Below the pieces are notes generated by a model, which was not told the origin of the DNA, ran no database searches, and was given only the letters and a program-made list of their open reading frames with translations. Shown here one piece after another: positions 12,812-45,190 of a stretch of DNA of 64,000 nt. Both the position numbers and the translations under genes were made by a program. The stretch's first letter is position 1, and each line of letters starts with the position of its first letter. Origin of the DNA: an uncultured Gammaproteobacteria bacterium (GTDB taxonomy: Bacteria; Patescibacteriota; Patescibacteriia; PEXW01); assembly GCA_964486505.1 (NCBI GenBank), contig CAZAMC010000002.1:193656-257655 (forward strand). The letters are read 5' to 3'.

Positions 12812-12837
12812 AAAAACCCGTCAGCGACGGGTTTTTG
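12812..12837. terminator. bidirectional intrinsic terminator (A5-CCCGTC-AGC-GACGGG-T5) between tmRNA 3' end and infC
   Basis: Perfect 6-bp GC-rich stem flanked by A-run and T-run. Confidence 0.55.
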
Positions 12838-12838
12838 G

Positions 12839-13241
12839 GTGGAGATGAGGGGTCTTGCACCCCTGTCTAGAATGCGGCAGGCCGGTGGTCTACAGGTGTA
12901 GGGCGTTCACGGGTGTTTCGATCTGGTCGCATGGAGCGCCCAAGCCCGACCAGGTCTAGTGGAAGTGAATTTCGGTTGCGCTGTTACCACCCCGACGCAG
13001 CCTACGCCTGGAATATAACACTCGCGATTCCCGCGCCAGGTCACGGGGCGAATGGGCTATCGGTTTTTAGGCGAGAGCCGGAGCAAAGCTGGGCATTGCG
13101 AACGCGTTAGCGAACGCAGTCTTCACTTTGCTGACAATGCTATTGGCAGTTGTCAATTTGTCCAGCAGTTTTACGCCGTGCTGAACGCGGGCGACCCGCA
13201 CACCAACCGTAATGCACTCTATCAACTTCTGGACATCCCCG
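12839..13241 (-). ncRNA. ssrA: tmRNA (SsrA), about 403 nt
   Basis: Directly downstream of smpB on the same strand. The 5' end GGGGATG pairs with the 3' CATCTCC including a G3:U70 wobble, the AlaRS identity element, followed by discriminator A and CC. A T-arm-like GGGG-TGCAAGA-CCCC precedes the acceptor. An internal tag reading frame ends ...GCT AAC GCG TTC GCA ATG CCC AGC TTT GCT CCG GCT CTC GCC TAA (ANAFAMPSFAPALA*) at 13068-13112. Confidence 0.7.
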
Positions 13242-17935: not shown

Positions 17936-18064
17936 GGTATTCTCCTTTTATTCACGTGCAATTTTCTGTCGGCACCTTAGCGCGCGGTAGGCGTTTGGTC
18001 AATTGCATGTCTTGCCAGCGAACGTCATTTATCGTACACTCACCCCCGCACAGTCATCTTGTCT

Positions 18065-21000: not shown

Positions 21001-21589
21001 CCGGCACATCGATGAACCCGTGAGCATTCACCTCATGCCCTGGCCAACTGCCGTCGCTGCCGATACCGCGGTCCTGGACGATATGCAGCGGGTACGAGAT
21101 GCAGTAGAACTCGGCCATGCAATTCGGAAGGAACAGAATCTCAAAGTTCGCCAGCCGCTTGCGAGCGTATTCGTTAACCATGAGCTCCAGCCCGACCTCC
21201 AGCAGGTGCTGCGGGAAGAGCTGAACGTAGAGGCGTGCACTGTAGACAAAGCTATGCCCCCCGGGTGGGTAGGCAAGGCCAAAGGCGCGCTCATGGTGGC
21301 GCTCAATACCACCATTGATGAAGATCTTCGTCATAAAGGTTTGGTCCGGGAGCTGGCCCGTCACGTGAACGACTTGCGGAAGGCAGCGGGGCTCACGGTA
21401 AAAGACGTGGTCGACGTGGAATGGATGACCGACGACCCAACGTTGCAGCATGCGTTTACCGAGCACGCCGCTGAGTTGCGCGAATTCACGAAAGCCCGGA
21501 GCATAAAGGCCAGCAGCGTGCTGCAGGTGACCCACAAGAAGGAGCTCATCATCGGCGATGCTCGGGTAACCATTGGCATTACCGCATGA
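18065..21589 (+). CDS. ileS: isoleucine--tRNA ligase carrying an embedded histidine-phosphatase (SixA/PGAM-like) domain
   Basis: HIGH-region PPTANGKPGIHH, KMSKSKGN, the WAISRERYWGTPLP and DVWFDSG motifs, and a long C-terminal anticodon-binding region. About 160 aa between the CxxC...CxxC zinc knuckle halves read LRHGFS...HGLTPEGAAQ...ASDFERTRETAQ...VLIVSHGDPLWIL. Confidence 0.85.
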   Translation: MAKKPHTAKDATAPSSERPATPFPALEEAVLQLWKDEKVFQKSLQQTKAGTPFVFFEGPPTANGKPGIHHVLARAYKDVIVRYKTMQGYFVERKAGWDTHGLPVELQVEKALKISGKQQIENLVPGDVQASIEKFNAACKKSVMEYRKDWEHLTSRIGFWLDLKHPYITYDPEYIESVWWVFQQVWEKGLVYKGHKVVPHCPRCETALSSHEVAQGYKNVTDTSVYVKFKVTQSTVPTLQNLLSKGEEVFVLSWTTTPWTLPGNVALAIGKDMAYQLVKHDGAYLILAKERMAVLGDDAKVLEDLTGEQLIGTAYEPLFPGAVKKGNSPTAWTVLPADFVTTTDGTGVVHTAVMYGEDDYKLGEEAGLPKVHTVDPTGKFLPSVAKWAGKFVKDPGVETDIITDLKERGLLHKVEQFAHDYPFCWRCSTPLLYYAKDSWFIRMSDVRSKLIENNRTINWVPAYLKEGRFGEWLKDVKDWAISRERYWGTPLPIWECAQCKAQKVVGSFADLQLPEKQVDVLMLRHGFSKKNKPSIIQGNVEESHLHGLTPEGAAQVKKTAQKLKGKIDVIVASDFERTRETAQIVSDVTGAPVTYDPDLREIQTPDWEGQLVVEVRKSLPDPLPMSHHLGGGENYYQVRERMQRAVQQAIRTHAGKRVLIVSHGDPLWILKWSYSNVPESQYPETPYPKKGEAEHLRVPLQFDPHRPFIDDVTLTCEKCDGTMHRVPEVLDVWFDSGAMPFAQWHYPFAEKARVDEGTNFPADYISEAIDQTRGWFYTLLAISTLLGKGAPYKNVISLGHILDAKGQKMSKSKGNVVVPADVINRYGADALRLHLFTMSQAGDPKNFDVQGVDDVVKKTLLIYWNIVTFYQTHAGEHVHVVPEKPSHIMDQWILARLSQVTGVVTAKLDGYDPTTAARTLQEFITDLSTWYVRRSRDRMRHGKHTSTEAAAVLRHVIRTTAGLLAPFAPFVSEHVHQQLRHIDEPVSIHLMPWPTAVAADTAVLDDMQRVRDAVELGHAIRKEQNLKVRQPLASVFVNHELQPDLQQVLREELNVEACTVDKAMPPGWVGKAKGALMVALNTTIDEDLRHKGLVRELARHVNDLRKAAGLTVKDVVDVEWMTDDPTLQHAFTEHAAELREFTKARSIKASSVLQVTHKKELIIGDARVTIGITA

Positions 21590-22347
21590 GCCTACACGAC
21601 GTAACGGGCATCGTGCTGCGCCGGCGTGACGTGCGGGAAGACAGTCGACTCTATACCATCTTCACCCACGAGCGCGGGAAGCTGGAGGTTTTTGGTCGTG
21701 GCATCCGAAAAGGCCGGGCGAAATTGGGTGGGCACCTAGAACCGGGTGCCACGGTACGGGTAACGTTGGCCCGTGGAAAAACCGGCGAAACGATTACCGC
21801 CGTCGAACGCAGTCATTACCCCGCGGCCACCATGGCAAACTTGGGGCGCCTTGCCAGCCTGGGATTTTTTCTCAGTTTAGTGGATGCGGTAACAAAACCC
21901 GAGTCGGCTGATCCGGCGTTGGCTTCGTTTGCGCAGGAAGCTATTAGCACCTTGGAACATTTACCGGCTGATCCGGCTGAGCAATCTCGGTTTCGCATGT
22001 GGGTAGCCTGGCGCGTTTTGGATTGCAGCGGCCATAGTCCCGAGCTCACGCACTGTGTACACTGCCGAAAATCATTGGCCGACAACGTGCGCTACTCTGC
22101 CCAGCTCGGCGGCTGGCTGGATGCCTCCTGCTACACTGCCGACGCCAGCGCCCTCGTCGTTGGCCCGGCTGTCCGCGAGGTCGTGCGCCAGTTCGTGCGT
22201 GGTGCCTGGGAGGAGTTACCCGCTATTCCCCCCGAACGTCCAGTCGAAAAGGATGCGGCCGCTGTGACGCGCGCCGCCCTGGATCACGTTCTGGAGCGCC
22301 GCCTACCAGCCGAGCGCTTCGTGCAGTTCACGCGCAGTCTCAGTTGA
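21586..22347 (+). CDS. recO: DNA repair protein RecO
   Basis: N-terminal OB-fold region (GIVLRRRDVREDSRLYTIFT...GKLEVFGRG) and a CxxC zinc motif (CVHCRK). ATGA overlap with the ileS stop. Confidence 0.7.
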   Translation: MSLHDVTGIVLRRRDVREDSRLYTIFTHERGKLEVFGRGIRKGRAKLGGHLEPGATVRVTLARGKTGETITAVERSHYPAATMANLGRLASLGFFLSLVDAVTKPESADPALASFAQEAISTLEHLPADPAEQSRFRMWVAWRVLDCSGHSPELTHCVHCRKSLADNVRYSAQLGGWLDASCYTADASALVVGPAVREVVRQFVRGAWEELPAIPPERPVEKDAAAVTRAALDHVLERRLPAERFVQFTRSLS

Positions 22348-24434
22348 GCAATCGAGCGGCGCAGCGTATACTTGCTAGTACCATGCCGAAAGCAAAAGCC
22401 ACCGATAGCGAGGGGACCCGTCGGGTTCCCGTCCGACGCGTTCGTGGGAAAGAAGCCGAAGCCCTTCCCGAACCAGAACCCAACGAACCGGATACGAAGC
22501 CGGAAGCCGAAACCGTCGAGGTCGAGCCGGCGGGTGAGTCCTTACCGGTGCGTTCCCGGCGCGCAACGCAGAGCTTGCGGGATAACGTCCTCAGCGAAAT
22601 TTACCGCGAAGAAGGGGAGACCCCGACCGATACCGACGTGACACGTATCCAGCGGAAGCAAAAAAAATCCCGTAAACTCCTCATCAGCTTCATCGTGCTG
22701 GGAGTGCTAGCGGTCGCAGCGGCTGCCGGGTATTTCATTTTTAGCCGGCAGAGCCGCTTCAGCGAACAGGTGACACTCACGGCGTCAGCAGCGTCGGAAG
22801 TTGCATCTGGCGATGACCTCACCGTGAGCGTGCAGGTGAAGAACGAAGAAGGTATTGCTCTGCGGAATGCCGAGCTCACCTATACGGCGCCCGAGGGTTT
22901 TACGTTCCGGACGAGTACGCCCTCGCCCTCGAATGAGTTTAACAATGCGTGGGGCCTGGGGACGGTTCAGGAACACGGCGGTACGACGGTGAGCATTAGC
23001 GGGCGGCTGCTTGGTGAGCAGAGTCAGGAAAAAGTATTCTCGTTCATGCTCACGTACACGCCCGCGAATTTTAATACTGAGTTCCAAAAATCTGTGGAGG
23101 TGCGGGTGGTCATTAATAAGACCGTCTTGCACATAACGCCCGAAGTGCCTTTGCGCATTCCACCGAAGACCCCCACCGTCATTCCAGTAACTGTGGAGAA
23201 TACGGGGAGTGACAGTCTGGACGCGGTTCGACTGGTGGCCGAGTACCCTGAAGGATTCACCTATAGCAGCGCCGAGCCAAAAGCGTCGGAGAAAGATACG
23301 GTGTGGGACTTGGGTACGCTGAAGGCTGGGCAAAAAGTGACGGTAAAAATTACCGGCGCTCTCGACCAACCAGTTGGGTCGACACCCGAGTTTAAATTCC
23401 GTGCTGGACGGGTGGCTGCTGCTGGCTTCCAGGCGCAGACGGAAGTAAGTGGGATTGGCACGGTGGTGCAGTCTGGAATGGCCCTGAAGGTTGTGGTTAC
23501 CAATCCGGGCAGCGGCGCAGCCATTGGTTGGGGCGAAACGCTCAACTACGTCATTACCTACACCAACGAGAGTGACGCGGAAATGCGTGACGTCAGCATA
23601 ACGATGGAGTTTAGTCAGAAAAACGTTGAGAGCGTTGATGTGGACATTCTGGATTTGGACAACCGCTCAGACTTGAGCAAGGGCAAGCTGGCAGGGCGCA
23701 CCCTTACGTGGACGAAGAAGGAAGTACCGGCGCTCGCCGCTGTTGCTGGCGGAAAGTCGGGTGACCTTTTGCTCCGTATTCCGCTGCGGTCGGGCCCGAA
23801 CATTCGTTCACAAGCCGACCGGAACTTTGCCATTACGAGTGCGGCCCGGCTCACCGTGGGGAGTGTTGATGGCTTAGATCAGAAGAGCATTGAAACCCAA
23901 GCCACACCCGTAACCACGAAAGTGACATCCAAGCTGAATGTGGAACCCGAAGGGCGGTACTACAGCGACGAGCAAATTCCGGTTGGCACGGGCCCGCTCC
24001 CTCCGCAAGTCGGCCAGGCCACCACGTATGAGCTGGGCTGGGTGTTAGCGAATCCGACGAATGAGGTCACCCAAGTTGTTGTGAGTGCTACGCTGCCCGA
24101 TGGTGTAACGTGGGCTGGGAAGCAGTCGGTAACGGCTGGCCAAGCTGTGGCGTACGAGGCGACCACGCGGGAGGTGACCTGGCGTGTGAATCGCGTGCCG
24201 CCGGGTACGGGAACCCTGTTCGCGAGTCTAGAGGCGAAATTCGAGGTGAGCGTTACTCCTACCGCTACGGATCTGGGGAAGCTCCTCATTCTCCTCAACC
24301 AAACGGTGGTGACTGCCCGAGACGAGTTCACGACCCAAGACCTACGGGTGGAGAAGGCCATCATCACCAGTGACTTGCCAAACGACGTTGCCGCGCAGGG
24401 GAAAGGCTTAGTCGTCGCCGCGCCGGCGGTGTAG
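22344..24434 (+). CDS. membrane-anchored surface protein with DUF11-type (conserved repeat domain) repeats
   Basis: Charged disordered N-terminus, one TM helix (LLISFIVLGVLAVAAAAGYFIF), then repeated about 100-aa beta-rich modules (e.g. VENTGSDSLDAVRLVAEYPEGFTYSS...WDLGTLKAGQKVTVKITGAL). 4-nt overlap with recO. Confidence 0.5.
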   Translation: MSNRAAQRILASTMPKAKATDSEGTRRVPVRRVRGKEAEALPEPEPNEPDTKPEAETVEVEPAGESLPVRSRRATQSLRDNVLSEIYREEGETPTDTDVTRIQRKQKKSRKLLISFIVLGVLAVAAAAGYFIFSRQSRFSEQVTLTASAASEVASGDDLTVSVQVKNEEGIALRNAELTYTAPEGFTFRTSTPSPSNEFNNAWGLGTVQEHGGTTVSISGRLLGEQSQEKVFSFMLTYTPANFNTEFQKSVEVRVVINKTVLHITPEVPLRIPPKTPTVIPVTVENTGSDSLDAVRLVAEYPEGFTYSSAEPKASEKDTVWDLGTLKAGQKVTVKITGALDQPVGSTPEFKFRAGRVAAAGFQAQTEVSGIGTVVQSGMALKVVVTNPGSGAAIGWGETLNYVITYTNESDAEMRDVSITMEFSQKNVESVDVDILDLDNRSDLSKGKLAGRTLTWTKKEVPALAAVAGGKSGDLLLRIPLRSGPNIRSQADRNFAITSAARLTVGSVDGLDQKSIETQATPVTTKVTSKLNVEPEGRYYSDEQIPVGTGPLPPQVGQATTYELGWVLANPTNEVTQVVVSATLPDGVTWAGKQSVTAGQAVAYEATTREVTWRVNRVPPGTGTLFASLEAKFEVSVTPTATDLGKLLILLNQTVVTARDEFTTQDLRVEKAIITSDLPNDVAAQGKGLVVAAPAV

Positions 24435-32381: not shown

Positions 32382-32762
32382 ATGGATATCTGGGTCTTTG
32401 GGAACCTTGATGTGCAGGAGGACAGTTTGCCGCTGCGCATCCTGCCTCAGCTGCAGCGCCAGCGACCGGACCTCACCTTCAAAACCCGTGACCCACTGGA
32501 GGAGTGGGACGAGGTGCCCGACCCGTTCATTATCGTGGATACCGTAAAGGGATTGCGCACGGTGGCGGTCTTCACAGACCTGAGTGCTTTCGCCGATGCG
32601 CCGCGCGTGACCATGCACGACCTCGACTTGCTCGCGCAGCTGCAGCTCTTGCAGAAGCTTGGCAAGCTCAAACGCCTCACTCTGGTTGGCGTGCCGCCGG
32701 AGCTTGGGCCAGACGAAGCGGTTACGCAGATCGCAGCTTCGCTCCCGCCAGTTTCAGCGTGA
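32382..32762 (+). CDS. putative [NiFe]-hydrogenase maturation endopeptidase (HycI/FrhD-like)
   Basis: N-terminal IWVFGNLDVQEDSLPLRI resembles the GxGNxxxxDDGxGxRV motif of hydrogenase maturation proteases. Convergent with the hydrogenase large subunit, whose C-terminus has a cleavable extension. Confidence 0.45.
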   Translation: MDIWVFGNLDVQEDSLPLRILPQLQRQRPDLTFKTRDPLEEWDEVPDPFIIVDTVKGLRTVAVFTDLSAFADAPRVTMHDLDLLAQLQLLQKLGKLKRLTLVGVPPELGPDEAVTQIAASLPPVSA

Positions 32763-34035
32763 GGAAGTGCGAAGCGCAGCTCATGCACGGGTCGTAGGCC
32801 CGGATGATTTTTTCTAGTTCGTGCTGGATTTGGTCAGCGGTTGGGTCCGCCGGCAAGAGGTCTTCCACCATGCGGGCCATGTCCTGCTCGATGTTAATTT
32901 GGTTCTGGCCGGTGGGCACGATGATGTCGCCAGTGATGATTTTGCCGTCCTGGCCAATGGTTACCTTGTGGTAGAGCGTGCCGCGGGGCGCCTCTACAAC
33001 GCCGACACCCGTCCCCGAGGGTCGCGCTGGGGGCACGAGCGGTTCTTTGGTGAACTTGGTATTCTGGAGCACCTCAATCGATTCATCCACGCAGTGCAGG
33101 ATTTCTATAGCCTGGGCCAGGTTGTTGTCGAATATGTTCGTGGAGGGGAAGCGTCCAAACACTTCGGGGATGCTCGCCTTGGTTTTGGCATTGAGGGTGT
33201 CTTTCGCCAGGTTCAAGCGGGCGAGCGCGCCCACCATGTAGGACCGGCCTTTGAATGAGTAGCCCGACGCTTGGGAGTAGGGGATGACGACGTGCTCCAG
33301 GTGGTCGCGGTAGTCGGACTCCGAAATGTAGTCACCATCGTCGCTCACAATGTGGCCGTCGAGGTAGCTGAAGGGGTTGGCCACCAGTGCCATGAAGTGG
33401 GTCTTGCGGTCAAAACGGAAATCGCATTTCGCAAACCGTTCAATAGTTCGTAGCACGGCTGGGCGAACGTGTTCTAGTTTGTGGATGAGTTCTTCCACCT
33501 GCGCCGGGGTGGGCACGTTGAGGAATCCACCGATCATGGGTGTGATGGCGTGCACGCTCCGGCCAGCAATGACAATGGAGAGGGCATTGCCTGCTGCCTT
33601 AATATCAAACGCATCGTGCAGGATTTGGTGCTGCTCGGGGTCATTCTCATCGAAGCTCAAGAAGTTGTCCTTGCCCCACATGTCCGGCAGAGCGAAGAGG
33701 TACAGGTGCAGGGCGTGGTCGCGGATGTTCAAGCCCGCCATGGTGAGCTTCTTCATCTGCATGCTCTGCGCTGTAGGCACAATACCTAAGGCATGTTCGC
33801 ATGCCTCGATGCTGCAAATCAGGTGTGCGTTAGAGCATGTACCACAAATGCGCGCGAGCAAAGCTGGCACCATCTTGTACGGCTTCCCGCGGATCGCCTG
33901 CGTGTAAAAGCGTTTCGATTCGGTTATGCCAAAGGTGCAGGACTGCACCTTGCCACCACGTACTTGCACGTCGAGCACGGCAGCGCCTTCAACCTTGGTG
34001 AGTTCTTTGGTGAGGGAGAGGTCGACGGTGTGCAT
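32722..34035 (-). CDS. [NiFe]-hydrogenase large subunit (group 3-like, 437 aa)
   Basis: N-terminal RICGTCSNAH and C-terminal DPCMSCASH nickel-binding motifs, followed by a 14-aa C-terminal extension. Confidence 0.8.
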   Translation of the reverse strand: MHTVDLSLTKELTKVEGAAVLDVQVRGGKVQSCTFGITESKRFYTQAIRGKPYKMVPALLARICGTCSNAHLICSIEACEHALGIVPTAQSMQMKKLTMAGLNIRDHALHLYLFALPDMWGKDNFLSFDENDPEQHQILHDAFDIKAAGNALSIVIAGRSVHAITPMIGGFLNVPTPAQVEELIHKLEHVRPAVLRTIERFAKCDFRFDRKTHFMALVANPFSYLDGHIVSDDGDYISESDYRDHLEHVVIPYSQASGYSFKGRSYMVGALARLNLAKDTLNAKTKASIPEVFGRFPSTNIFDNNLAQAIEILHCVDESIEVLQNTKFTKEPLVPPARPSGTGVGVVEAPRGTLYHKVTIGQDGKIITGDIIVPTGQNQINIEQDMARMVEDLLPADPTADQIQHELEKIIRAYDPCMSCASHFLTLKLAGAKLRSA

Positions 34036-36379: not shown

Positions 36380-37444
36380 ATGGAAATTATCGCTATTGTT
36401 CTCACGGTCCTCGTCCTCGTTGGCATTGGCTTGCTGTATGCCCGCCTAGCGAAGGCCGGCCCTGGCGGCGCAGACCCGCAGACGCACGAGAAGCTCATCC
36501 GCATGGAGGAACGCCTGCAGCAGCTCAATGAGAAGAGCACCGAGCAGACGCGTGTACTGGATGCAAAGCTCGGTGAGTCCACCAAAGCTCTCCAGCAGCA
36601 GTTCGGCCAGTCAACGAAGATTGTGCAGGACGTTACGGAGAAGCTTACCAAGCTGGATGAGACGAACCGGCAAGTGCTCAATTTCAGTGATCAACTCCGC
36701 AACCTGCAAGATATCCTGCAGAACCCCAAGCAGCGGGGGATTTTGGGGGAGTACTTCCTCGATAGCCTGCTTAAGAATGTGCTGCCGCCGGGTAGCTACC
36801 ACATGCAGTACAAGTTCAAGGATGGGGAGATTGTGGATGCCGTGGTGAAGATCAAAGACCGGCTGGTGCCCATAGACTCCAAGTTCAGCCTGGAGAACTA
36901 CAACCGCATGGCCGCCACGCACGTGGAGAGCGAGAAGAAAATTTTGGAGAAAGCGTTCGTGAATGACCTCAAGGTCCGCATTCAAGAGACGGCCAAGTAC
37001 ATTCGGCCGAGTGAGAACACCATGGACTTCGCGTTCATGTTCATTCCGTCCGAAGCAATCTACTACGACCTGCTCGTGAACAAAGTTGGCGCCGTGACGG
37101 AGGAAACCGAAAACCTCATCCAGCGCGCGGCGAACAAGTACCACGTCATTATCGTCTCACCCACATCTTTCCTGGCGTACCTGCAGACAGTCCTGGAAGG
37201 TTTGCGGGCCATGCAAATTGAAGAGTCGGCCAAAGAAATCCGCAAGAACGTGGAGCAACTCGGCAAACATATCTCAAGCTACGACGTGTACTTGCAGAAA
37301 CTGGGGAACCACCTGGGCACCACGGTGAACACCTACAACGCCGCGTACAAGGAATTCAAGAAAGTTGATAAAGACGTGCTAAAGATTGCCAACGTTGGCG
37401 GCAGCGTTGAAGCAATTGAGTTAGAGAAACCGAAAGGGGAGTAA
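36380..37444 (+). CDS. rmuC: DNA recombination protein RmuC
   Basis: N-terminal TM helix, coiled-coil, and the RmuC core (GILGEYFLDSLLKNVLPPGSYHMQYKF...VPIDSKFSLENY). Confidence 0.75.
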   Translation: MEIIAIVLTVLVLVGIGLLYARLAKAGPGGADPQTHEKLIRMEERLQQLNEKSTEQTRVLDAKLGESTKALQQQFGQSTKIVQDVTEKLTKLDETNRQVLNFSDQLRNLQDILQNPKQRGILGEYFLDSLLKNVLPPGSYHMQYKFKDGEIVDAVVKIKDRLVPIDSKFSLENYNRMAATHVESEKKILEKAFVNDLKVRIQETAKYIRPSENTMDFAFMFIPSEAIYYDLLVNKVGAVTEETENLIQRAANKYHVIIVSPTSFLAYLQTVLEGLRAMQIEESAKEIRKNVEQLGKHISSYDVYLQKLGNHLGTTVNTYNAAYKEFKKVDKDVLKIANVGGSVEAIELEKPKGE

Positions 37445-37446
37445 GT

Positions 37447-38076
37447 ATGGATGCACCAACGCAAGTCCCGCCCCAACCTTTGGGGTTTCCGCCGAAGCAG
37501 CATTGGCAGCGGGTAACGATTATTGTTGTAACCATCCTGCTGAGCGTTGCCTACATTGTTACCAGTGATGCCTCGACGCGGCTGGTGGACCAATCCTGCG
37601 TACGAGCATCAGACTGCCCAGGTGAGCAACTCTGTAAAGTGCATCCCGAAGATGTGGAAGCCCTGCCCACGGAGCCCGCGGGTCACATTGTTATCCCGAC
37701 GCTCGTCCTTCGGGAGGGCGCGCGGGGCTTCTGTACTCCGAATAGCGGGATTGCACTGTACATCGGCGCGTCGGGGAGTGGGAGCGCGCAGTACACGGCC
37801 GATGGGCGCGTCATCGTTGAGTCGCTCGCGGTTGATAACTTTCAAGCGGGCTCTCCACAGAAGGTCATGTTCCATTTCGCGCTCTTCGTGAGCGTGTGTG
37901 TACTTTTCCTCATCGCGCTGGTTAAAACCATAATTGCTTTGGTGCGGTTTACCCGAGCGGCCAAAAAATCTGAAGCTCCACTAAGCCTGGATCGAAAAGT
38001 CTATCGGTCTGCTGCGGTGCGGACGGGCCTGTACGCAGTGGGGGTTGCGCTCGTCATCTTGCTTGGGATTTTGTAA
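37447..38076 (+). CDS. hypothetical membrane/secreted protein
   Basis: N-terminal and C-terminal hydrophobic helices around a Cys-containing domain. 2 nt after rmuC. Confidence 0.4.
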   Translation: MDAPTQVPPQPLGFPPKQHWQRVTIIVVTILLSVAYIVTSDASTRLVDQSCVRASDCPGEQLCKVHPEDVEALPTEPAGHIVIPTLVLREGARGFCTPNSGIALYIGASGSGSAQYTADGRVIVESLAVDNFQAGSPQKVMFHFALFVSVCVLFLIALVKTIIALVRFTRAAKKSEAPLSLDRKVYRSAAVRTGLYAVGVALVILLGIL

Positions 38077-38091
38077 GCGCGGACGCAAGTA

Positions 38092-38121
38092 CTTGTCAAA
38101 AGTGTTTTTTTGTGTTACAAT
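38092..38121 (+). promoter_or_regulatory. candidate promoter TTGTCA-18-TACAAT
   Basis: Good -35/-10 20 nt upstream of ATG 38141. Confidence 0.4.
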
Positions 38122-38140
38122 ACAGTTAGTAAAAATAAAC

Positions 38141-40012
38141 ATGCACAAATTCCTCAAGAAGAAATTGTCCTGGTACCGCCAGTGGCATGAGACCTGGATC
38201 CACGGCCCATCGCACTGGGTGGTTTTTGCATGCGCCGTGGCCACCGCATCAGCACTCATCACGTACGTGGCACAAACCGACGGGGCGCCCGCACTCGTGC
38301 CTTTGGCGCAGGCGCAGGTCGCGGGTACGACCTACTACGTGGACGGCGAAAATGGGAATGACGCGAACAACGGCTTGTCGCAGCCAGCGGCGTGGAAGAC
38401 CCTGGCCAAGGCCAGCACGGTCTACCAGGGCGGCGACACCCTGAATATTCACCCCGGGGAGTACCGAGAAGTGTTGACGATCAAGAACGGTCCCAGTGCA
38501 GCACGGCCCACGGTAATCAACGGCGTCGGCAGCCGAGAGCAGGTGAAAATTCTCGGCAGCGAGCCCGTCACCGGCTGGTCGCAGTACAATGCCAATGTCT
38601 GGGTGGCAGATTTTTCATCCACGGTGACCCGGTGCGAGCGGATGGACGGCACGAGTGTCTACAACAAACCCAACGTGACCCCCGACTGCTGGTCTGACCG
38701 GAGCGACTGGTTTACCCGGGCGAGCTATGCCAATGGTAGTTTTTCGAGTGTGAGGGAAAATCCCGCTTCGGTTAACGCGCCCGGCGAGTACTACTACGAT
38801 AGTGTCGCCCGAAAAATTTACCTCTGGCCTTTCGGAAGTGATAACCCGAACGCACACACGATCGAGTGCTCCGCCCGCCGACCGCTGAGCCTGTACCCGA
38901 TGAATTTTACCCTGCAGAACGTGACCATCATGCACAGCTCGCTGAATCCGCTGTCGCTGGGTGACGGCAATGCCAGCATTCGCAATAATGATTTTGGGTA
39001 CAATTCCGGTGAAGGCTCCTGCTCAGAGAATCCCGCCTCGATTTTTTCCGGCCGCCAAAATTTCTTAAAACCCGGAATCAGCATCGTCGGCAACAAAATT
39101 CATGATCAAGGCAGTGACAAAGGTCCGAGTTTGATTACGCATGGCGGCCACCGGGGGTCGGGCATCGTGCTGTACAGCGTTCGCGACACCCTCATCGAGG
39201 GCAACGAATTCTACAATCATGAAATCGGCGTCTTCATTAAAGCGGGGAATACCGAGCCGAACTACACCAACGTCACCATCCGCGACAATATCGTGCACGA
39301 TGTCCAGAATGGGATTGGGTTTGGCTTGCAGACGTACGCTAGCTCCACCGCCTACGCCGGCATTATTGAGGGGAATCTGGTGTACGACATGCACTATTCC
39401 AGTGCCCTTAACTTGGACTACTTTGCCATTTGGACAGCTCGGGCTAATGGGACCGTCCGCGTCCGTCACAACACGGTCTACAATACCGCCGGCGTGTACA
39501 TTGCTAAGGATGAGCCAGCCACGGATGCGAATGAAGTGCGCGGCAACATCATCGCCCAATCAATGCCGTACCAGGATGGCGCGGCGCACCTCCGCATGGA
39601 GAACAACTCGGCTGCGAACACCCTTTCCGACTACAACCTCTTCCACGACTCCCGGCAGTACTTTGGCGAGACGGACACAACGGGTCGGTGGGTGGCGCCG
39701 TCGCCCTCGTTCTACAACACCTTTGCCAGCTGGAAGTCGGGAACCGGCAAGGACCAGCACAGCATTGAAGCGAACCCGCTCTTCGTTTCGGCTGCGGCCC
39801 GTGATTTTCGCCTGCAAGCGGGCAGCCCGGCTATTGACGCGGGGGCGTTCATTGCGGGGTACCACTGTGCGCAGTCAGATGACGTGGACTCGAATCAATC
39901 CAACTGCCGGCACTGGCGCGGCGCCGCACCGGACTTGGGCGCCCTGGAGTACGGAGTAGTGAGTAGCGATACTACTGCGCCAGCCCGTGTCATAAACCTG
40001 TATGCACAGTAA
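38141..40012 (+). CDS. surface-anchored right-handed parallel beta-helix (pectate-lyase-fold) protein
   Basis: Beta-helix repeat signatures throughout (e.g. ...TIRDNIVHDVQNGIGFG...EGNLVYDMHYS). The N-terminal module KKKLSWYRQWHETWIHGPSHWVVFACAVA precedes a hydrophobic helix. Ends ...INLYAQ*. Confidence 0.6.
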   Translation: MHKFLKKKLSWYRQWHETWIHGPSHWVVFACAVATASALITYVAQTDGAPALVPLAQAQVAGTTYYVDGENGNDANNGLSQPAAWKTLAKASTVYQGGDTLNIHPGEYREVLTIKNGPSAARPTVINGVGSREQVKILGSEPVTGWSQYNANVWVADFSSTVTRCERMDGTSVYNKPNVTPDCWSDRSDWFTRASYANGSFSSVRENPASVNAPGEYYYDSVARKIYLWPFGSDNPNAHTIECSARRPLSLYPMNFTLQNVTIMHSSLNPLSLGDGNASIRNNDFGYNSGEGSCSENPASIFSGRQNFLKPGISIVGNKIHDQGSDKGPSLITHGGHRGSGIVLYSVRDTLIEGNEFYNHEIGVFIKAGNTEPNYTNVTIRDNIVHDVQNGIGFGLQTYASSTAYAGIIEGNLVYDMHYSSALNLDYFAIWTARANGTVRVRHNTVYNTAGVYIAKDEPATDANEVRGNIIAQSMPYQDGAAHLRMENNSAANTLSDYNLFHDSRQYFGETDTTGRWVAPSPSFYNTFASWKSGTGKDQHSIEANPLFVSAAARDFRLQAGSPAIDAGAFIAGYHCAQSDDVDSNQSNCRHWRGAAPDLGALEYGVVSSDTTAPARVINLYAQ

Positions 40013-41480
40013 AACACTGCTCAGTAATTTTCGATGGTACCACCAGTGGCATGAGACCTGGATCCACGGCCCATCGCACTGGGTGGTTTTTGCATCGGCA
40101 GTCGCCGTCATTTCGGCGGTGTTCATGTACGTGGTGCAGAGCGGATCGGGGGGCGGGATTGTGGAGCCGGCGAGCGCGCAATTCACCATAGCCGCTGCAA
40201 CGAACATCGCCACCTGCCGGGACAACGGTTGCACGCTCACCATCCCGCGGCAGAAAGTGTTCATGTCCCTCACCGATCCGAACACGGTGTGGGTGATGTT
40301 CGAGAAGAGTTCGGGTAATTTCATGAAAACCACAGACGGGGGCGCAACCTGGAGTACGCCTATTACTATTCGGAGCTGGATCGACTACCACGCGTCGCTC
40401 TCCGGCGACAGCACCGGGAACATCTATGTCACTGATCCCGGATCGGGAAACGTGTACTTCCGGAAGGTGCGCACACCGGCGGTGGCAGCGGGAGACATGA
40501 ACTCCGCGCTCACCCTTTCGTCTGCCTATACCCCGGCGGGCGTCGCGACACGATCCAATGTCCTCGCGCAGGATGCAAACAACATCTGGGTATTCTACCG
40601 AACGAGCATTAATGCTACGGGCAATGTGCGGTACTTCCATTCCACAGATGGTGGCGCCACGTTTCCAAACGAAGGGTGGGTAACGAACGCCGGTACCGAT
40701 AACGTCCGCATTGGGTCATTGCTCATCAACGGCCAGCCCGCCGTGTTCATTTGGTACAGTGACGACTCTTCGAACGTCGGGTGGGGGTACAAGTACTTCA
40801 TTTGGGATGGCTCGCAGTTTGTAGCGAATGCCGACTCTTCCATTGTTTGGGGCTCGAAAATTTACCGTCGGGAGTACGCAATGAGTTTTGTGAACAATGA
40901 ATTGCACGTCGTGTACCCAGACAACAACAAGCACCTCATTCATTCGTGGAAGGAGTACAACAACGGCACTGGCAGTTGGTCGCAATCCAATCTCGAAACC
41001 CTCGCCGTTGAGCCACGTGATTGGCACCCTTCGTTGACCCGCCATGGGAATGACCTCTACCTGTTCTACATTAAGCAGGAGTCTTCTACGGCCGGGAATA
41101 ACAACGTGTACTACCGGAAGTGGGACACCACGGCGCACACCTGGACGTCTGCAATACCCGTTACTACGAACGGCGTTGATAACCGCTTCCCCAGTGGGCC
41201 GGCGGTAGCAAACCCAACCGCAGACTACATACCGATCATATGGTCTGCGCCGACAGCGCAGGTTATGTACGAGAAAATCGCTACCACACCCGCCCCCGCG
41301 TGCACCGAATCCTGGTCGTGCACAGGGTGGTCTGCCTGCAGTGCAGGGGGCTCGCAGACGCGAACGTGCACGGACACCAACGCCTGCGGCACGACGACAA
41401 ACAAACCAGCGGAGAGCCAAGCCTGCACGCCCGCAGATAGCCTTGCGCCCGACCCCATTAGCGACTTGTATGCGCAGTAG
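40002..41480 (+). CDS. surface-anchored BNR/sialidase-like repeat protein
   Basis: BNR motifs (TTDGGATWS, STDGGATFP). Same N-terminal module (WYHQWHETWIHGPSHWVVFASAVA). Cys-rich C-terminal region ending ...SDLYAQ*. Start overlaps the upstream stop. Confidence 0.6.
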   Translation: MHSKTLLSNFRWYHQWHETWIHGPSHWVVFASAVAVISAVFMYVVQSGSGGGIVEPASAQFTIAAATNIATCRDNGCTLTIPRQKVFMSLTDPNTVWVMFEKSSGNFMKTTDGGATWSTPITIRSWIDYHASLSGDSTGNIYVTDPGSGNVYFRKVRTPAVAAGDMNSALTLSSAYTPAGVATRSNVLAQDANNIWVFYRTSINATGNVRYFHSTDGGATFPNEGWVTNAGTDNVRIGSLLINGQPAVFIWYSDDSSNVGWGYKYFIWDGSQFVANADSSIVWGSKIYRREYAMSFVNNELHVVYPDNNKHLIHSWKEYNNGTGSWSQSNLETLAVEPRDWHPSLTRHGNDLYLFYIKQESSTAGNNNVYYRKWDTTAHTWTSAIPVTTNGVDNRFPSGPAVANPTADYIPIIWSAPTAQVMYEKIATTPAPACTESWSCTGWSACSAGGSQTRTCTDTNACGTTTNKPAESQACTPADSLAPDPISDLYAQ

Positions 41481-43128
41481 AGGACATTTCCACCAGTACC
41501 TCCTTACCGCCGTAACGGTGTGTGCCGTTGCCGGGCTAACGTTGGCTTTGCAATCGCAGGCTGCGACGACCCTCAGTGCATGCGGAACGCTAAGCCAAGC
41601 GAATGAGACGTACATTCTTGCCCAGGATGTAACCGCATCGGGAACGTGTTTCACGGTGACCGCGGGGAACGTCACCCTCGATCTCAACGGTCACACTATC
41701 ACCTACGGTACGGGTGGGGCGGCGCAAGTGTACGGGGTACAGATTGGTTCCAGCAACGATAATCTTCGCGTGACAAATGGTGCCATCCGGCAGTCGCCGA
41801 GCGCTGGGTCATTCTCCCACGCAATTTACGCAAGCTCAGGTTCGAATGATCGGTTCGACCACCTGACGCTGGAAGTGTACACCGACTCCAGCGCCGCGAT
41901 TGTAACGTGGTGGGGCCTTGGCCACCAGATTGATTACAATAGTATTACAAGCCACGTGCAAACCATTCAAAACCGCCACCAGAATCAGGGGTATAGCATT
42001 CAACTGTGGAATGGCGGGTCGTTTGACGTGCACCACAATACGCTCGTGGGTGGTCCGCAAGGTGGCATCTACTACTACCACAGCGACAACACCCGCGTGT
42101 ACAGCAATGACATTCGGCATGGCGGCCAAAGCATAGGGTATAGTAACAACTTCTGCATTGGTGCCTCGGGCGCGAATTCGGAAGTGTACGACAACACCTG
42201 CCACCCGGTGCAGGGCAGAGGTATCCATCTCTCGGGGAACAATTCCACAGTGCGGAACAATACCTTTGACGTTATTGAATTGGCGAATAACGCCGAGTAC
42301 GGTGGTTGTCAGATTGGCGGGACGTACGGTATTCAAATTGAAAATCCGGCAACCAACCTGCAAGTGTTGAACAACACCGTTATTGCCCGAGCCGACGCGT
42401 GCGCCGCGCAAGCATTCCGTGCCTCGGGTTTGGGGGCGGGGAACAACTGTCGGGTGTCTGGGAATACGTTTACGGCTGTGCGGCAAGGTGCCGGGACGGG
42501 CGTTGCGAACAGCGTGTCGGTCGATAGCATTGCTGCAGGACTCACAATCGAGAGTAACACGCTCACCGCAGACTCAGCAGTGTTTCACGTTGACTGGGAT
42601 GGCGCTACCGGCGTGCGCCTGCAAGGGAATACGATGGTGAAGGGGAATAACCCCTCGGCGACCTACGCGTTGGTGAACTTTGGCAACGGTGGTGCGTACC
42701 CTTCGCTTGGCCATATCCTGCAGGACTCGACGTACGGCAACGGTGCCGACGACGCGAGTTACCGCGTGCGCGCCGCAGCATTCGAGTACTTCGTGCAGTG
42801 GACGTTGAACGTCACTGCAACAGACGGACACGGAACGACCCTACGCGATGCAACGGTAACGATTACCGATAGCACCGGGGTAACCGTGTATACCGGATCC
42901 ACAAGCGCAGCGGGCACGGCCGCGGCAGTACTCCGGGAGTACCGACGCTACAACCAGAGCGGCGTTAATTACGTCCAGTCGTACAACCCCTACACGGTGA
43001 CCGTGTCGAAGGGCGGGTATGGTTCCTCAGTCTCCACCGTAACCGTCGACAAGGTAGCCAACCTGACCGCGCAGCTTACCGGTGACGCAACCCCGCCGGC
43101 AGCCGTAACTGACCTCCACGTCCAGTAG
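41470..43128 (+). CDS. secreted parallel beta-helix protein
   Basis: Classical signal-peptide-like N-terminus (MRSRGHFHQYLLTAVTVCAVAGLTLALQSQA) and beta-helix repeat signatures (NGHTITYGTGGAAQVYGVQIG...). Ends ...TDLHVQ*. ATG 41470 overlaps the upstream stop in the same geometry as the previous junction. Confidence 0.55.
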   Translation: MRSRGHFHQYLLTAVTVCAVAGLTLALQSQAATTLSACGTLSQANETYILAQDVTASGTCFTVTAGNVTLDLNGHTITYGTGGAAQVYGVQIGSSNDNLRVTNGAIRQSPSAGSFSHAIYASSGSNDRFDHLTLEVYTDSSAAIVTWWGLGHQIDYNSITSHVQTIQNRHQNQGYSIQLWNGGSFDVHHNTLVGGPQGGIYYYHSDNTRVYSNDIRHGGQSIGYSNNFCIGASGANSEVYDNTCHPVQGRGIHLSGNNSTVRNNTFDVIELANNAEYGGCQIGGTYGIQIENPATNLQVLNNTVIARADACAAQAFRASGLGAGNNCRVSGNTFTAVRQGAGTGVANSVSVDSIAAGLTIESNTLTADSAVFHVDWDGATGVRLQGNTMVKGNNPSATYALVNFGNGGAYPSLGHILQDSTYGNGADDASYRVRAAAFEYFVQWTLNVTATDGHGTTLRDATVTITDSTGVTVYTGSTSAAGTAAAVLREYRRYNQSGVNYVQSYNPYTVTVSKGGYGSSVSTVTVDKVANLTAQLTGDATPPAAVTDLHVQ

Positions 43129-43160: not shown

Positions 43161-43973
43161 ATGCTCAGCGTCCAGCATCTTCGTAAAGTTTTCGGGTCCG
43201 TCACGGCGGTTGACGACGTGTCGTTTGATGCGCATGGCGGGGAGATTTTTGGTTTGCTGGGCCCCAACGGCGCGGGCAAGACCACAACTATCAGGGTGAT
43301 TGCCACCATTTTAGGACCAACCTCCGGAACCGCAACTATCTTGGGTCATGATATTGTTCGTGACGCCGAAGCCGTTCGGCGCAACATTGGCGTTCTAACT
43401 GCCGAGATTGGCTTGTACGACCGGTTCACTGCCCGCGAGAACATGCGGTACTTTGGCCACCTCTACGGTTTAGGCGGTCCATCGCTAGAAAAGCGCATTG
43501 AGGAGCTAATCCAAGCCCTGGACATGAAACGTTTCGCTGATCGTCGGGCCGGTACGTTTTCCACGGGCATGAAGCAGAAAGTGGCCATTGCCCGATCAAT
43601 CATCCATGATCCACCCGTAGTCATTTTTGACGAGCCAACTGCCGGGCTGGATGTCTTGGCGAGCCAGACCGTGATTGCGTACATGCAGGATGCGAAGGCG
43701 AAAGGCAAGCTGGTTGTTCTCTCTACCCACGACATGGCCCACGCCCAAGCACTCTGCGACCGGGTGGCGATTATTCACCGCAGCAAGCTCCTCACGTTGG
43801 ATACCACCGCGAATCTCCTCCAGAAAACTCACTCCAATTCACTCGAGCACGCGTTCCTCAATATCGTTGGGACGGGTGCGGCTCAGCAAACCGAGCGCGA
43901 ACGCGAAGAACAGCACTTAGCGAACGTGGAGAAGAGCAAGCGCCGCCGCTTGGGTTTCCGCTTCCGGTTATGA
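43161..43973 (+). CDS. ABC transporter ATP-binding protein
   Basis: Walker A (GPNGAGKTTT), signature (FSTGMKQKVAIA), Walker B (VVIFDEPTAGLD) and H-loop. Confidence 0.8.
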   Translation: MLSVQHLRKVFGSVTAVDDVSFDAHGGEIFGLLGPNGAGKTTTIRVIATILGPTSGTATILGHDIVRDAEAVRRNIGVLTAEIGLYDRFTARENMRYFGHLYGLGGPSLEKRIEELIQALDMKRFADRRAGTFSTGMKQKVAIARSIIHDPPVVIFDEPTAGLDVLASQTVIAYMQDAKAKGKLVVLSTHDMAHAQALCDRVAIIHRSKLLTLDTTANLLQKTHSNSLEHAFLNIVGTGAAQQTEREREEQHLANVEKSKRRRLGFRFRL

Positions 43974-45154
43974 GCACTATCTACACCGTCTTCAAGAAGG
44001 AAATCATCGATAGTATCCGTGATAAGCGGACGCTGTGGACAGCCGTACTCATGCCCATCTTCCTCATGCCGGCAATTCTGGTGGGCAGCATGAAGTTCCA
44101 AGAGTACCAGGTAAAAAAGACGGAGGCGAAGCCGGCCCTGGTGGCTGTACTGCCCGCCGATGCGGCCCCATCCTTGGTCGACTTCCTTAATAGCCAGCCA
44201 AAGTTTGAGGTGAAAGCAGTGGCCAATGTGGCGGCGAGCATTGATGACGGGACAATCAACATCGCCCTGGAAGTGCCAAAGAATTTCGAGGCCCAGTTAC
44301 AGGCGGGCCAGCCCGTGAAGGTAACGGTCCAGCAGAAGAGCTCGAATATCGATTCTTCGACCGCGCTGAGTAAGGTGCAGGCGGCACTCGGGCTTTTCAA
44401 CCAGCAGCGCGCAGCCGTTATCCTTCAGCAGCAAGGGATTGACCCCCAAAGTCTTGCCGCCATCGTGCCGACGCTGGTAGATATCGCTACCCCGGAAGAG
44501 CGCGGCGGTTTTATTGCGGGTTTACTCCTGCCGATGTTCATCGTGCTCTTCGCTATTGTGGGCGGCATGTACATTGCTATCGACGTTTCGGCCGGAGAGA
44601 AAGAGCGCAAGACTTTGGAGGCACTAGTGCTTGCTCCGGTTTCTCGGCTCAAACTCGTGATGGGCAAGTACTTTGCGGTTGCTGCTACTGCCAGTGCGTC
44701 TATCATCCTGTCACTCACGTCACTTACCGTGGCTTTCCAAATGTTCCCGCCCAGCTTTGGCACCGAAGCGGTAACCATTAACCTCACCCCACCGACGCTC
44801 GCCATCATGCTCGTCATCGGCGTCATTCTCTCGGTGATGTTCGCGGGGCTCCTGCTCTCGGTGGCAATTTTCGCCAAGAGCTACAAGGAGGCGGTGAACT
44901 ACATTAGCCCGTTCTACCTTCTTGCCATTTTGCCGGTGGCAATCTTCGCGCAAATTCCAGGGCTCAAACCCACTCTGGTGATGTTTCTGATTCCCGGAGT
45001 GAATGCCACCTTCGTTATGAAGGACGCGCTCGTGGGAACCTATGACCTGATGAAAATTTTTGTCACCCTGGGTTCACTGCTCGTGTACGCCACCATTGCC
45101 ATCCTGGCGGCGGGGAAGATTTTCTCCAAGGAGAGCATTCTGTTCCGGGATTAG
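43970..45154 (+). CDS. ABC-2 family permease
   Basis: N-terminal TM helix, large extracytoplasmic loop, then five C-terminal helices. ATGA overlap with the ATPase gene. Confidence 0.65.
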   Translation: MSTIYTVFKKEIIDSIRDKRTLWTAVLMPIFLMPAILVGSMKFQEYQVKKTEAKPALVAVLPADAAPSLVDFLNSQPKFEVKAVANVAASIDDGTINIALEVPKNFEAQLQAGQPVKVTVQQKSSNIDSSTALSKVQAALGLFNQQRAAVILQQQGIDPQSLAAIVPTLVDIATPEERGGFIAGLLLPMFIVLFAIVGGMYIAIDVSAGEKERKTLEALVLAPVSRLKLVMGKYFAVAATASASIILSLTSLTVAFQMFPPSFGTEAVTINLTPPTLAIMLVIGVILSVMFAGLLLSVAIFAKSYKEAVNYISPFYLLAILPVAIFAQIPGLKPTLVMFLIPGVNATFVMKDALVGTYDLMKIFVTLGSLLVYATIAILAAGKIFSKESILFRD

Positions 45155-45190
45155 CAAAAGCCCTCCGCAGGTGGGAGGGCGTATGAAGGT

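Follow-up and report, generated by a model that had tools for sequence, protein, structure and literature searches.

The window analysed here, a stretch of 64,000 nucleotides (nt) with a GC content of 57%, comes from an uncultured bacterium of the Patescibacteria, or candidate phyla radiation (CPR) (contig CAZAMC010000002.1, positions 193,656 to 257,655 of the forward strand). Surrounded by housekeeping genes, three overlapping genes, g1, g2 and g3, form one operon (Table 1). The bodies of the encoded proteins differ, and two short terminal elements recur: an N-terminal leader with a tryptophan- and histidine-rich (Trp/His) module in g1 and g2, and a C-terminal tail in all three. The strong promoter that an initial annotation of this DNA had placed upstream of the array was found (Table 1), and its sequence, CTTGCCAAAAGTnTTTTTTTGTGTTACAAT, is kept 5' of the first leader-bearing gene in loci L001, L002, L006, L007 and L009 (L-numbers denote loci fetched for comparison, P-numbers homologous proteins). 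This single promoter would drive the expression of three exported glycan-active proteins.

According to the initial annotation, the three proteins share a C-terminal motif of six residues. We found that the similarity is longer and comprises about 15 residues, with the consensus D-[TAS]-[TIV]-[PAS]-P-x-x-[VI]-x-[DN]-L-x-[AVS]-x-COOH. Within the window, only g1, g2 and g3 end in this way (3 of 237 stop-to-stop open reading frames (ORFs) of at least 100 amino acids). The annotation had made its proposal depend on the similarity reaching beyond these genes, and it does: among 339 ORFs of at least 150 amino acids in 249 kb of window and fetched loci, 30 carry the tail (two of them from duplicate contigs), always at the extreme C-terminus and in no case internally. 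Tail genes occur mostly in runs of two to three, on contigs with GC contents of 0.39 to 0.67, and lone genes outside arrays (L005, L011, L020) carry the tail as well. The tail of g1 is identical at 9 of 15 positions to that of its homologue in L018, which is itself 40% identical overall. Each gene family has kept its tail through long divergence.

No Pfam or NCBIfam model matched the tail. It corresponds to an inter-domain linker followed by the first beta-strand of a fibronectin-III (Fn3) fold. P0008 contains a true Fn3 domain that begins with GDTTAPAAISNLARS..., with position 2 of the fn3 profile aligned at 'AISNLA', and the C-terminus of the same protein reads GDITPPAAVTDLVAQ. The fn3 model (PF00041; seven strands, ~85 residues) gave no match to g1–g3, in which the tail covers the linker and about the first nine profile positions, and neither did the dockerin model (PF00404). 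In the AlphaFold2 (AF2) models, the tail is disordered, with a pLDDT (per-residue confidence) below 50 over residues 603–623 of g1 and a mean of 44 over the last 10 residues of g2.

In homologues, the position of the tail is occupied by other elements. These are a dockerin in P0012, P0032 and P0037 (and, by sequence reading only, a dockerin-like repeat in P0016), a type IX secretion system C-terminal domain (T9SS CTD, PF18962) in the distant homologues P0039–46, a transmembrane (TM) anchor in P0010 and P0034 of the Micrarchaeota, and a Cys-containing module in others. Upstream of the g1 tail itself, a 'choice-of-anchor Q' match lies near threshold. Three g1 homologues on other contigs (P0033, P0035, P0038) were seen to carry a different, unannotated module at the tail/dockerin position (..C.LP.DQ.PC.CI...EL...IS.W..G.I....L...I..WK..), which may be another uncharacterised docking module.

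The leaders of g1 and g2 combine a basic start (KKK), the Trp/His module, a membrane helix of 17–19 residues and an AxA↓Q motif 12–17 residues past this helix. Both copies of the module encode WY(R/H)QWHETWIHGPSHWVVFA, with the hydrophobic helix directly after it; the consensus is WYxQWHxxW[IV]HGP[SA]HW, in which the three His are invariant. In the AF2 models, the Trp/His part forms two short helices and is followed by a membrane helix (about residues 23–48) and a disordered spacer; in g1, helices were predicted at 2–8, 10–19 and 23–48, and disorder at 47–59. In the family alignment, AxA↓Q falls where leaderless orthologues end their signal peptide (AYG↓AP or ALA↓AP). On sequence grounds, the Trp/His module is an N-terminal extension of a predicted Sec-type signal peptide or signal anchor, and cleavage may take place at AxA↓Q. 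In the topology that we propose, the basic start would be followed by a cytoplasmic, Trp/His-rich amphipathic helix, the membrane helix, a Gly/Ser spacer and AxA↓Q. The Trp/His helix may control targeting or translocation or bind metal, or the leader may act once it has been cleaved off. A Tat signal was rejected by direct reading, as there is no RR in MHKFLKKKLSWYRQ... or MHSKTLLSNFRWYHQ..., and so was a lipoprotein signal: VFAC in g1 has an atypical Phe at −2, g2 has Ser in place of Cys, and two of the leader-bearing proteins of L006 (B and C) lack Cys.

A profile built from five leaders was searched against 1.84 billion cluster representatives (E ≤ 1e-3). It matched 13, eight of them at E ≤ 1e-10, and all matches begin at residue 1–8 of the matched protein. 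A degenerate DNA pattern for the leader motif was found in 2 of 185,579 species genomes. The 62-residue leader alone, used as homologue query, returned nothing, which reflects a word-index limit and is no evidence of absence. Within its narrow clade, the leader heads at least four types of body: beta-helix (g1, P0036), propeller (g2, P0002, P0006, P0007) and two others (P0078/L001 and P0081). The array of L006 has it on each of its three genes. Weaker profile matches hint at a more relaxed pattern, 'WYxxWHxxxxHxxxHW + TM', in low-GC CPR.

These results bear on several points of the initial annotation. Both termini were regarded there as modular elements that fit no known secretion signal. Both indeed occur on unrelated bodies, and the N-termini of g1 and g2, like the tail, matched no model in Pfam or NCBIfam (E ≤ 0.01 for the N-termini), including PF13018, PF04650/TIGR01168 and TIGR03715; a literature search on either motif or on CPR sorting signals gave nothing relevant. 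The idea of an unusual Trp/His export or anchoring signal holds in so far as the module is rare and without a database match, but its distribution is very narrow and an otherwise Sec-like signal peptide lies behind it. Nor does the N-terminal module run through the whole array: g1 and g2 have it, but g3 has an ordinary-looking signal peptide instead (residues 1–31, ...LQSQA↓ATT). An ordinary signal peptide without wider distribution had been named as the outcome that would speak against the proposal. The module found here precedes a Sec-like peptide and is known from few representatives; within its clade, it heads at least four bodies.

The two module copies were reported to be identical at 60 of 61 nt. 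Our measurement (38171-38231 versus 40035-40095) gave the same value, and the similarity runs on at 82% over 109 nt. Comparison of the two genes revealed no other repeat that joins g1 and g2. Over the same 61 nt, the other pairs among ten leader copies are identical at 40–55 positions, and about half (50–60%) of their shared non-Trp codons are identical. In the window pair, 15 of the 15 such codons agree. Synonymous sites also differ freely among the three copies of L006. Since these sites vary among the other copies, it is the protein motif that is conserved, and the near-identity in the window is best explained by a recent, local gene-conversion event that involved both leader copies, in agreement with the initial annotation.

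Comparison with sister loci points in the same direction as regards the idea of a 'shufflable cassette'. Downstream of rmuC and behind the same promoter, L009 has g2 alone, L002 and L007 have g2-g3, L006 has three leader-bearing genes with other bodies, and L001 has another body in first place. The first leader segment, MHxYLKKKLPWYRQ, always goes with the gene nearest the promoter, irrespective of its body. The membrane-spanning segment tracks the body in part, as the g2 of the window and the g2 of L002 share 17 of 24 residues; as a counter-case, the g2 of L009 and the beta-helix protein P0036 also share 17 of 24. Such a mosaic would be the outcome expected from recombination within the Trp/His module, including deletion of g1 between the repeats. 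Recombination of this kind would also account for sister genomes in which bodies are swapped or one gene is missing while the promoter and the first leader segment stay the same. The idea is supported to this extent, but the gene order itself is old: L018 contains a g1 homologue, g2 and g3 in this order, with ordinary signal peptides and no Trp/His leader, and the array is thus no newly assembled cassette. We also rejected g1 as a compositionally foreign, recent insert, as its GC content at third codon positions (0.73) equals that of its neighbours and L018 keeps the order; these data fit an operon of long standing in which conversion and deletion came later.

The body of g1 was originally annotated as a pectate-lyase-fold enzyme. 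It matches the Pfam family Beta_helix (9e-12), and a profile of its homologues found the GH120 xylosidase XylC (3vst) in the PDB at 1.4e-34 and GH136 lacto-N-biosidases (LnbX-type) at 1e-11 to 1e-19. Foldseek, run with the AF2 model (pLDDT 76), agreed with the profile search and placed 3vst on top. Profile similarity and beta-helix fold, the two features by which we judged the likeness to GH120/GH136, are both present. By profile and predicted fold, g1 appears to encode a beta-helix glycosidase-like protein closer to GH120 XylC and GH136 LnbX than to pectate lyases. Its product is identical to homologue P0023.

For g2, the annotation as a BNR/sialidase-like protein agrees with the predicted fold, an AF2 beta-propeller (pLDDT 84). 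g2 itself has no Pfam match; PF13088 (BNR_2) occurs only as a pre-computed annotation on its orthologue P0002. With Foldseek, we obtained PLL lectins, GH145 (5muk, 5mum, 5mvh), PL42 (7esk) and sialidases at E = 1e-10 to 1e-8. Superposition with GH145 5muk gave TM-scores of 0.55/0.69 at a sequence identity of only 10–16%, and lectins match equally well. Orthologues of g2 are 66–77% identical. The Cys-rich module of g2, CxExWxCxxWxxC...QxRxCxDxNxCGTT...P...Q.C, gave no Pfam match at E ≤ 1; many surface proteins of CPR and Micrarchaeota have it, singly or in tandem (tandem in P0018–P0022, P0024 and P0034), as a stalk ahead of the tail. g3 matches Beta_helix (7e-8) and, weakly, CarboxypepD_reg. 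Its tail-bearing orthologues are found in L002, L003, L004 and L018, and the copy in L007 is interrupted by the contig end. P0010 and P0034, from Micrarchaeota (DPANN), are among the nearest relatives of both g1 (42% identity) and g2 (55%), with a C-terminal membrane anchor that replaces the tail. These relatives suggest that surface glycosidase genes may have been exchanged between ultra-small bacteria and archaea.

As the initial annotation had stated, both gene junctions are overlaps in the same register; each spans 11 nt. The register is identical because the [Y/H]-Ala codons of the tail (yAT GCn) contain the next ATG. The g2/g3 overlap recurs in L002 and L007 (2956 versus 2966), and more distant relatives have short gaps in place of overlaps. 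From their arrangement, the overlaps are taken to be ordinary translational coupling.

Table 1. Features of the array, of its neighbours and of the comparative loci (positions refer to the window unless a locus is given).
Feature	Position	Strand	Description	Basis
Promoter of array	38093..38121	+	sigma-70-type; TTGTCA, 17-nt spacer, TG-extended TACAAT	scan score 10/12
g1	38141..40012	+	623 aa; secreted protein with a right-handed beta-helix, similar to glycoside hydrolases GH120/GH136	ORF listing, direct reading; Pfam, profile vs PDB, Foldseek, AF2
g2	40002..41480	+	492 aa; secreted beta-propeller, sialidase/GH145/PL42-like fold, with Cys-rich stalk module and tail	ORF listing, direct reading; AF2, Foldseek
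g3	41470..43128	+	552 aa, counted from the ATG that agrees with orthologues; secreted beta-helix protein with C-terminal beta-sandwich and tail	Pfam
g1 leader	38141..38314 (aa 1-58)	+	MHKFLKKKLS, Trp/His module, TM helix, spacer, AQA↓QV	
g2 leader	40002..40178 (aa 1-59)	+	ends ASA↓QF	
Trp/His module, copy 1	38171..38231	+	WYRQWHETWIHGPSHWVVFA; partner in 60/61-nt repeat	
Trp/His module, copy 2	40035..40095	+	WYHQWHETWIHGPSHWVVFA; partner in 60/61-nt repeat	
Junction 1	40002..40012	+	11-nt overlap ATGCACAGTAA; g2 ATG within g1 Tyr-Ala codons	
Junction 2	41470..41480	+	11-nt stop/start overlap ATGCGCAGTAG	
Cys-rich 42-aa module in g2	41301..41426 (aa 434-475)	+	CTESWSCTGWSACSAGGSQTRTCTDTNACGTTTNKPAESQAC; resembles thrombospondin type-1 repeat	
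g1 tail	39965..40009	+	SDTTAPARVINLYAQ	
g2 tail	41433..41477	+	ADSLAPDPISDLYAQ	
g3 tail	43081..43125	+	GDATPPAAVTDLHVQ	
ABC ATPase	43161-43973 (or TTG start 43137)	+	ABC_tran 1.6e-33	Pfam
ABC-2 permease	43970-45154	+	ABC2_membrane_3 1.7e-27 (PF12698/PF12679)	Pfam
TM-Fn3-FG-GAP genes	L003 15404-16996; L004 15450-17048; L018 13133-14725; L013 3-107; L014 14174-14785		candidate tail partner	

Considering that the tail is disordered, resembles an Fn3 A-strand, is conserved and stands where homologues have dockerins, T9SS CTDs or anchors, we infer that it may be a docking or retention tag. As a minimal tag, it would bind a surface partner in trans, by beta-strand addition to an Ig/Fn3-like protein, and would in this way hold the enzymes on the tiny cell. 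Taken jointly, an operon with extended signal peptides, gene conversion between leaders, a docking tail and coupled junctions is the reading that we prefer, at a probability slightly better than even (roughly 0.55). As a lead for the partner, a membrane-anchored protein with TM, Fn3, Cys-rich (thrombospondin-like, TSP) and FG-GAP/VCBS propeller parts, ending in ..GGPQVRVIEV, is encoded directly 3' of tail arrays in five loci (Table 1); we regard this protein as only a lead. A paralogue of 1115 amino acids with the same C-terminal propeller was seen 5' of the arrays in L003, L004 and L018. A bolder version, speculative and in our estimation rather unlikely, is that the 15-residue Fn3 A-strand peptide would act as a minimal 'dockerin', with which array exoenzymes plug into the adjacent-encoded Fn3/FG-GAP scaffold for cellulosome-like display; the leader and tail junctions would at the same time supply the homology through which bodies behind one promoter are swapped, converted or deleted.

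Several observations weigh against the preferred reading. AxA↓Q lies unusually distant from the membrane helix for signal peptidase I, and the leader may therefore remain as an anchor. An exact-pattern scan of the metagenome collection gave just five true tails, so the breadth of the tail has merely been sampled. As for the acceptor, an Fn3 domain lacking its A-strand was considered and rejected, because the neighbouring TM-Fn3-FG-GAP protein (530 amino acids) has an A-strand-like segment of its own (..VLAADVFATA..). This protein was not found in the window, and no partner of the tail has been seen so far. A further point comes from L007 and L009, where ORFs inserted 3' of rmuC end in a copied rmuC C-terminus (..ELEKPKGE): inserted ORFs have inherited the end codons of rmuC, and C-terminal codons can therefore spread in this clade without function.

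This last observation also speaks for the alternative that the tail is a functionless vestige, a linker with a truncated Fn3 start that was copied by the mechanics of 3'-end insertion or duplication and is tolerated. The stretch TGTATGCRCAGTAR, common to both window junctions, and the disorder of the tail in both models would fit as well. We nevertheless consider a vestige unlikely, given that D1, P5, V/I8, D/N10, L11 and A13 are kept in 30 ORFs on contigs of such different GC content while the other positions vary, that conservation of the g1 tail exceeds that of the g1 body (60% versus 40%), that the protein always ends 3–4 residues past the Leu, and that lone genes outside arrays carry the tail too. 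The invariant [DN]-L and the exactly placed C-terminus could instead mark a site of covalent processing or attachment, for example by a transpeptidase or by a SpyTag-like isopeptide via the invariant Asp/Asn; split Ig-like domains that form an isopeptide with a terminal strand are known from SpyTag/CnaB2. Yet [DN]-L is a normal signature of the Fn3 A-strand too, no sortase-like or other candidate enzyme was seen in the loci examined, and the tail has neither the TM segment nor the basic stretch of sortase, exosortase and archaeosortase signals, all of which makes covalent attachment distinctly improbable.

Other alternatives concern the leader and the neighbouring genes. The 61-nt identity could be an element at the nucleotide level, be it a structured RNA, an attenuator or a site at which cassettes undergo programmed, site-specific shuffling. 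A terminator scan flagged a 5-bp hairpin with a T-run in both copies (38205-38222 and 40069-40086; codons GPSHWVVF), and sister genomes show differing bodies behind a constant leader. Against this stand the free synonymous variation described above, an RNAalifold covariation term of only −0.22 kcal/mol over nine leader copies with one compensatory pair, and the absence of a recombinase gene next to the array, which is adjoined only by rmuC. The hairpin probably arises incidentally from the codons; we rejected the attenuator and hold a nucleotide element of either kind to be very improbable. The initial annotation had also drawn attention to an ATP-binding cassette (ABC) ATPase and ABC-2 permease 3' of the array. 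The pair is present, with no terminator-like site between g3 and these genes and a hairpin terminator at 45160-45180, and is probably co-transcribed with the array. As L002, L009 and L019 have the same ABC neighbours, leader and/or tail might be signals for export through this transporter. However, it is of the ABC-2 type (NatAB-like), with separate ATPase and permease and not the fused ABC protein of type I secretion, and the proteins bear Sec-like hydrophobic signals at their N-termini. Moreover, the ABC neighbour is missing beside the tail arrays of L003, L004, L006, L018, L013 and L014 and in the tail-bearing locus L005. The pair is thus no consistent partner of the tail genes; we dismissed it as a dedicated exporter, and export by this route is scarcely credible.

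Both elements of the preferred reading, extended signal peptide and docking tag, have counterparts among systems already known. Like ESPR (extended signal peptide region, PF13018) of autotransporters/TPS and like YSIRK-G/S and KxYKxGKxW of Gram-positive surface proteins, the leader places a conserved, aromatic-rich extension ahead of a Sec-type core. The proteins concerned are large, lie at the surface or are secreted, and differ in their bodies, beta-helices among them; the leader is confined to a restricted lineage. It differs from them in having no model match, in the motif WYxQWHxxWIHGPSHW with three invariant His, in the spacer of 12–17 residues between core and AxA, and in having only 13 representatives. 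With the dockerins of the cellulosome, which bind cohesins, the tail has in common that it is a short, non-catalytic, C-terminal module on secreted carbohydrate-active enzymes; g1/g2 homologues elsewhere carry dockerins at this very position, and candidate membrane-anchored scaffold genes lie beside arrays in five loci. It is unlike a dockerin in its size (15 versus about 70 residues) and in lacking Ca-binding repeats and a Pfam match; no cohesin-like partner was identified, and binding is hypothetical.

A terminal beta-strand peptide that is disordered when alone and completes or extends an Ig/Fn3-like sheet of another protein is known from donor-strand complementation or exchange in chaperone-usher and type V pili, and from split Ig-like domains (SpyTag/SpyCatcher). 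The tail resembles these systems by its Fn3 A-strand homology alone: no acceptor lacking a strand and no pilus machinery were found. LPXTG, PEP-CTERM, PGF-CTERM and the T9SS CTD also occupy the extreme C-terminus of secreted proteins, and g1 has the choice-of-anchor Q-like domain upstream of its tail. In contrast to those signals, the tail comes without a TM helix, a basic stretch or a CTD of 80 residues, and the proteins end 3–4 residues past the motif. In the variable surface-protein loci vsa and vsp of Mycoplasma, a conserved 5' leader is used for recombination. The array is similar in that promoter and leader segment are common to genes with different bodies and that recombination in the leader puts other bodies behind the promoter. 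Unlike in vsa/vsp, all genes are complete and co-transcribed, neither a site-specific recombinase nor inverted sites were seen, and the changes occur between species and are not phase variation.

Some observations were made beside the array. After rmuC, L007 (843-1364) and L009 (2941-3324) contain unrelated small membrane ORFs ending in ..ELEKPKGE and ..SEKSKGE, and the end of rmuC itself is slightly altered (window counterpart 37400-37444). The pattern suggests that these ORFs were inserted at the 3' end of rmuC and that the target was duplicated in the process. The corresponding slot of the window holds a different membrane ORF of 209 amino acids (37447-38076). Elsewhere, the window carries a tmRNA gene (12837-13240), a gene for a NiFe-hydrogenase large-subunit-like protein (32722-34035, minus strand), a gene for a DUF11 surface-type protein of 696 amino acids (22344-24434) and a class I tRNA synthetase gene (18059-21589; 1176 amino acids) with a histidine-phosphatase domain (His_Phos_1) inserted at residues 523–688. 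A 47-residue 'retron-type reverse transcriptase' in the P0021 cluster was set aside as an unrelated fragment.

Most Patescibacteria are epibionts that have not been cultured, and it is believed that they attach to their hosts and feed on them by means of surface proteins. In Saccharibacteria, the one genetically tractable member of the group, such proteins with VCBS, dockerin and Fn3 domains are essential, and glycans of the host are thought to be their target (PMC10633639). A tag common to many enzyme bodies, together with a candidate scaffold gene nearby in related loci, offers a concrete, testable hypothesis for how CPR cells may retain secreted enzymes at their surface. Leader and tail would provide two simple signatures for finding the exoenzyme repertoire of CPR genomes, and the leader repeats appear to be a clear natural example of how recombination in the coding region of a signal peptide can remodel an operon.

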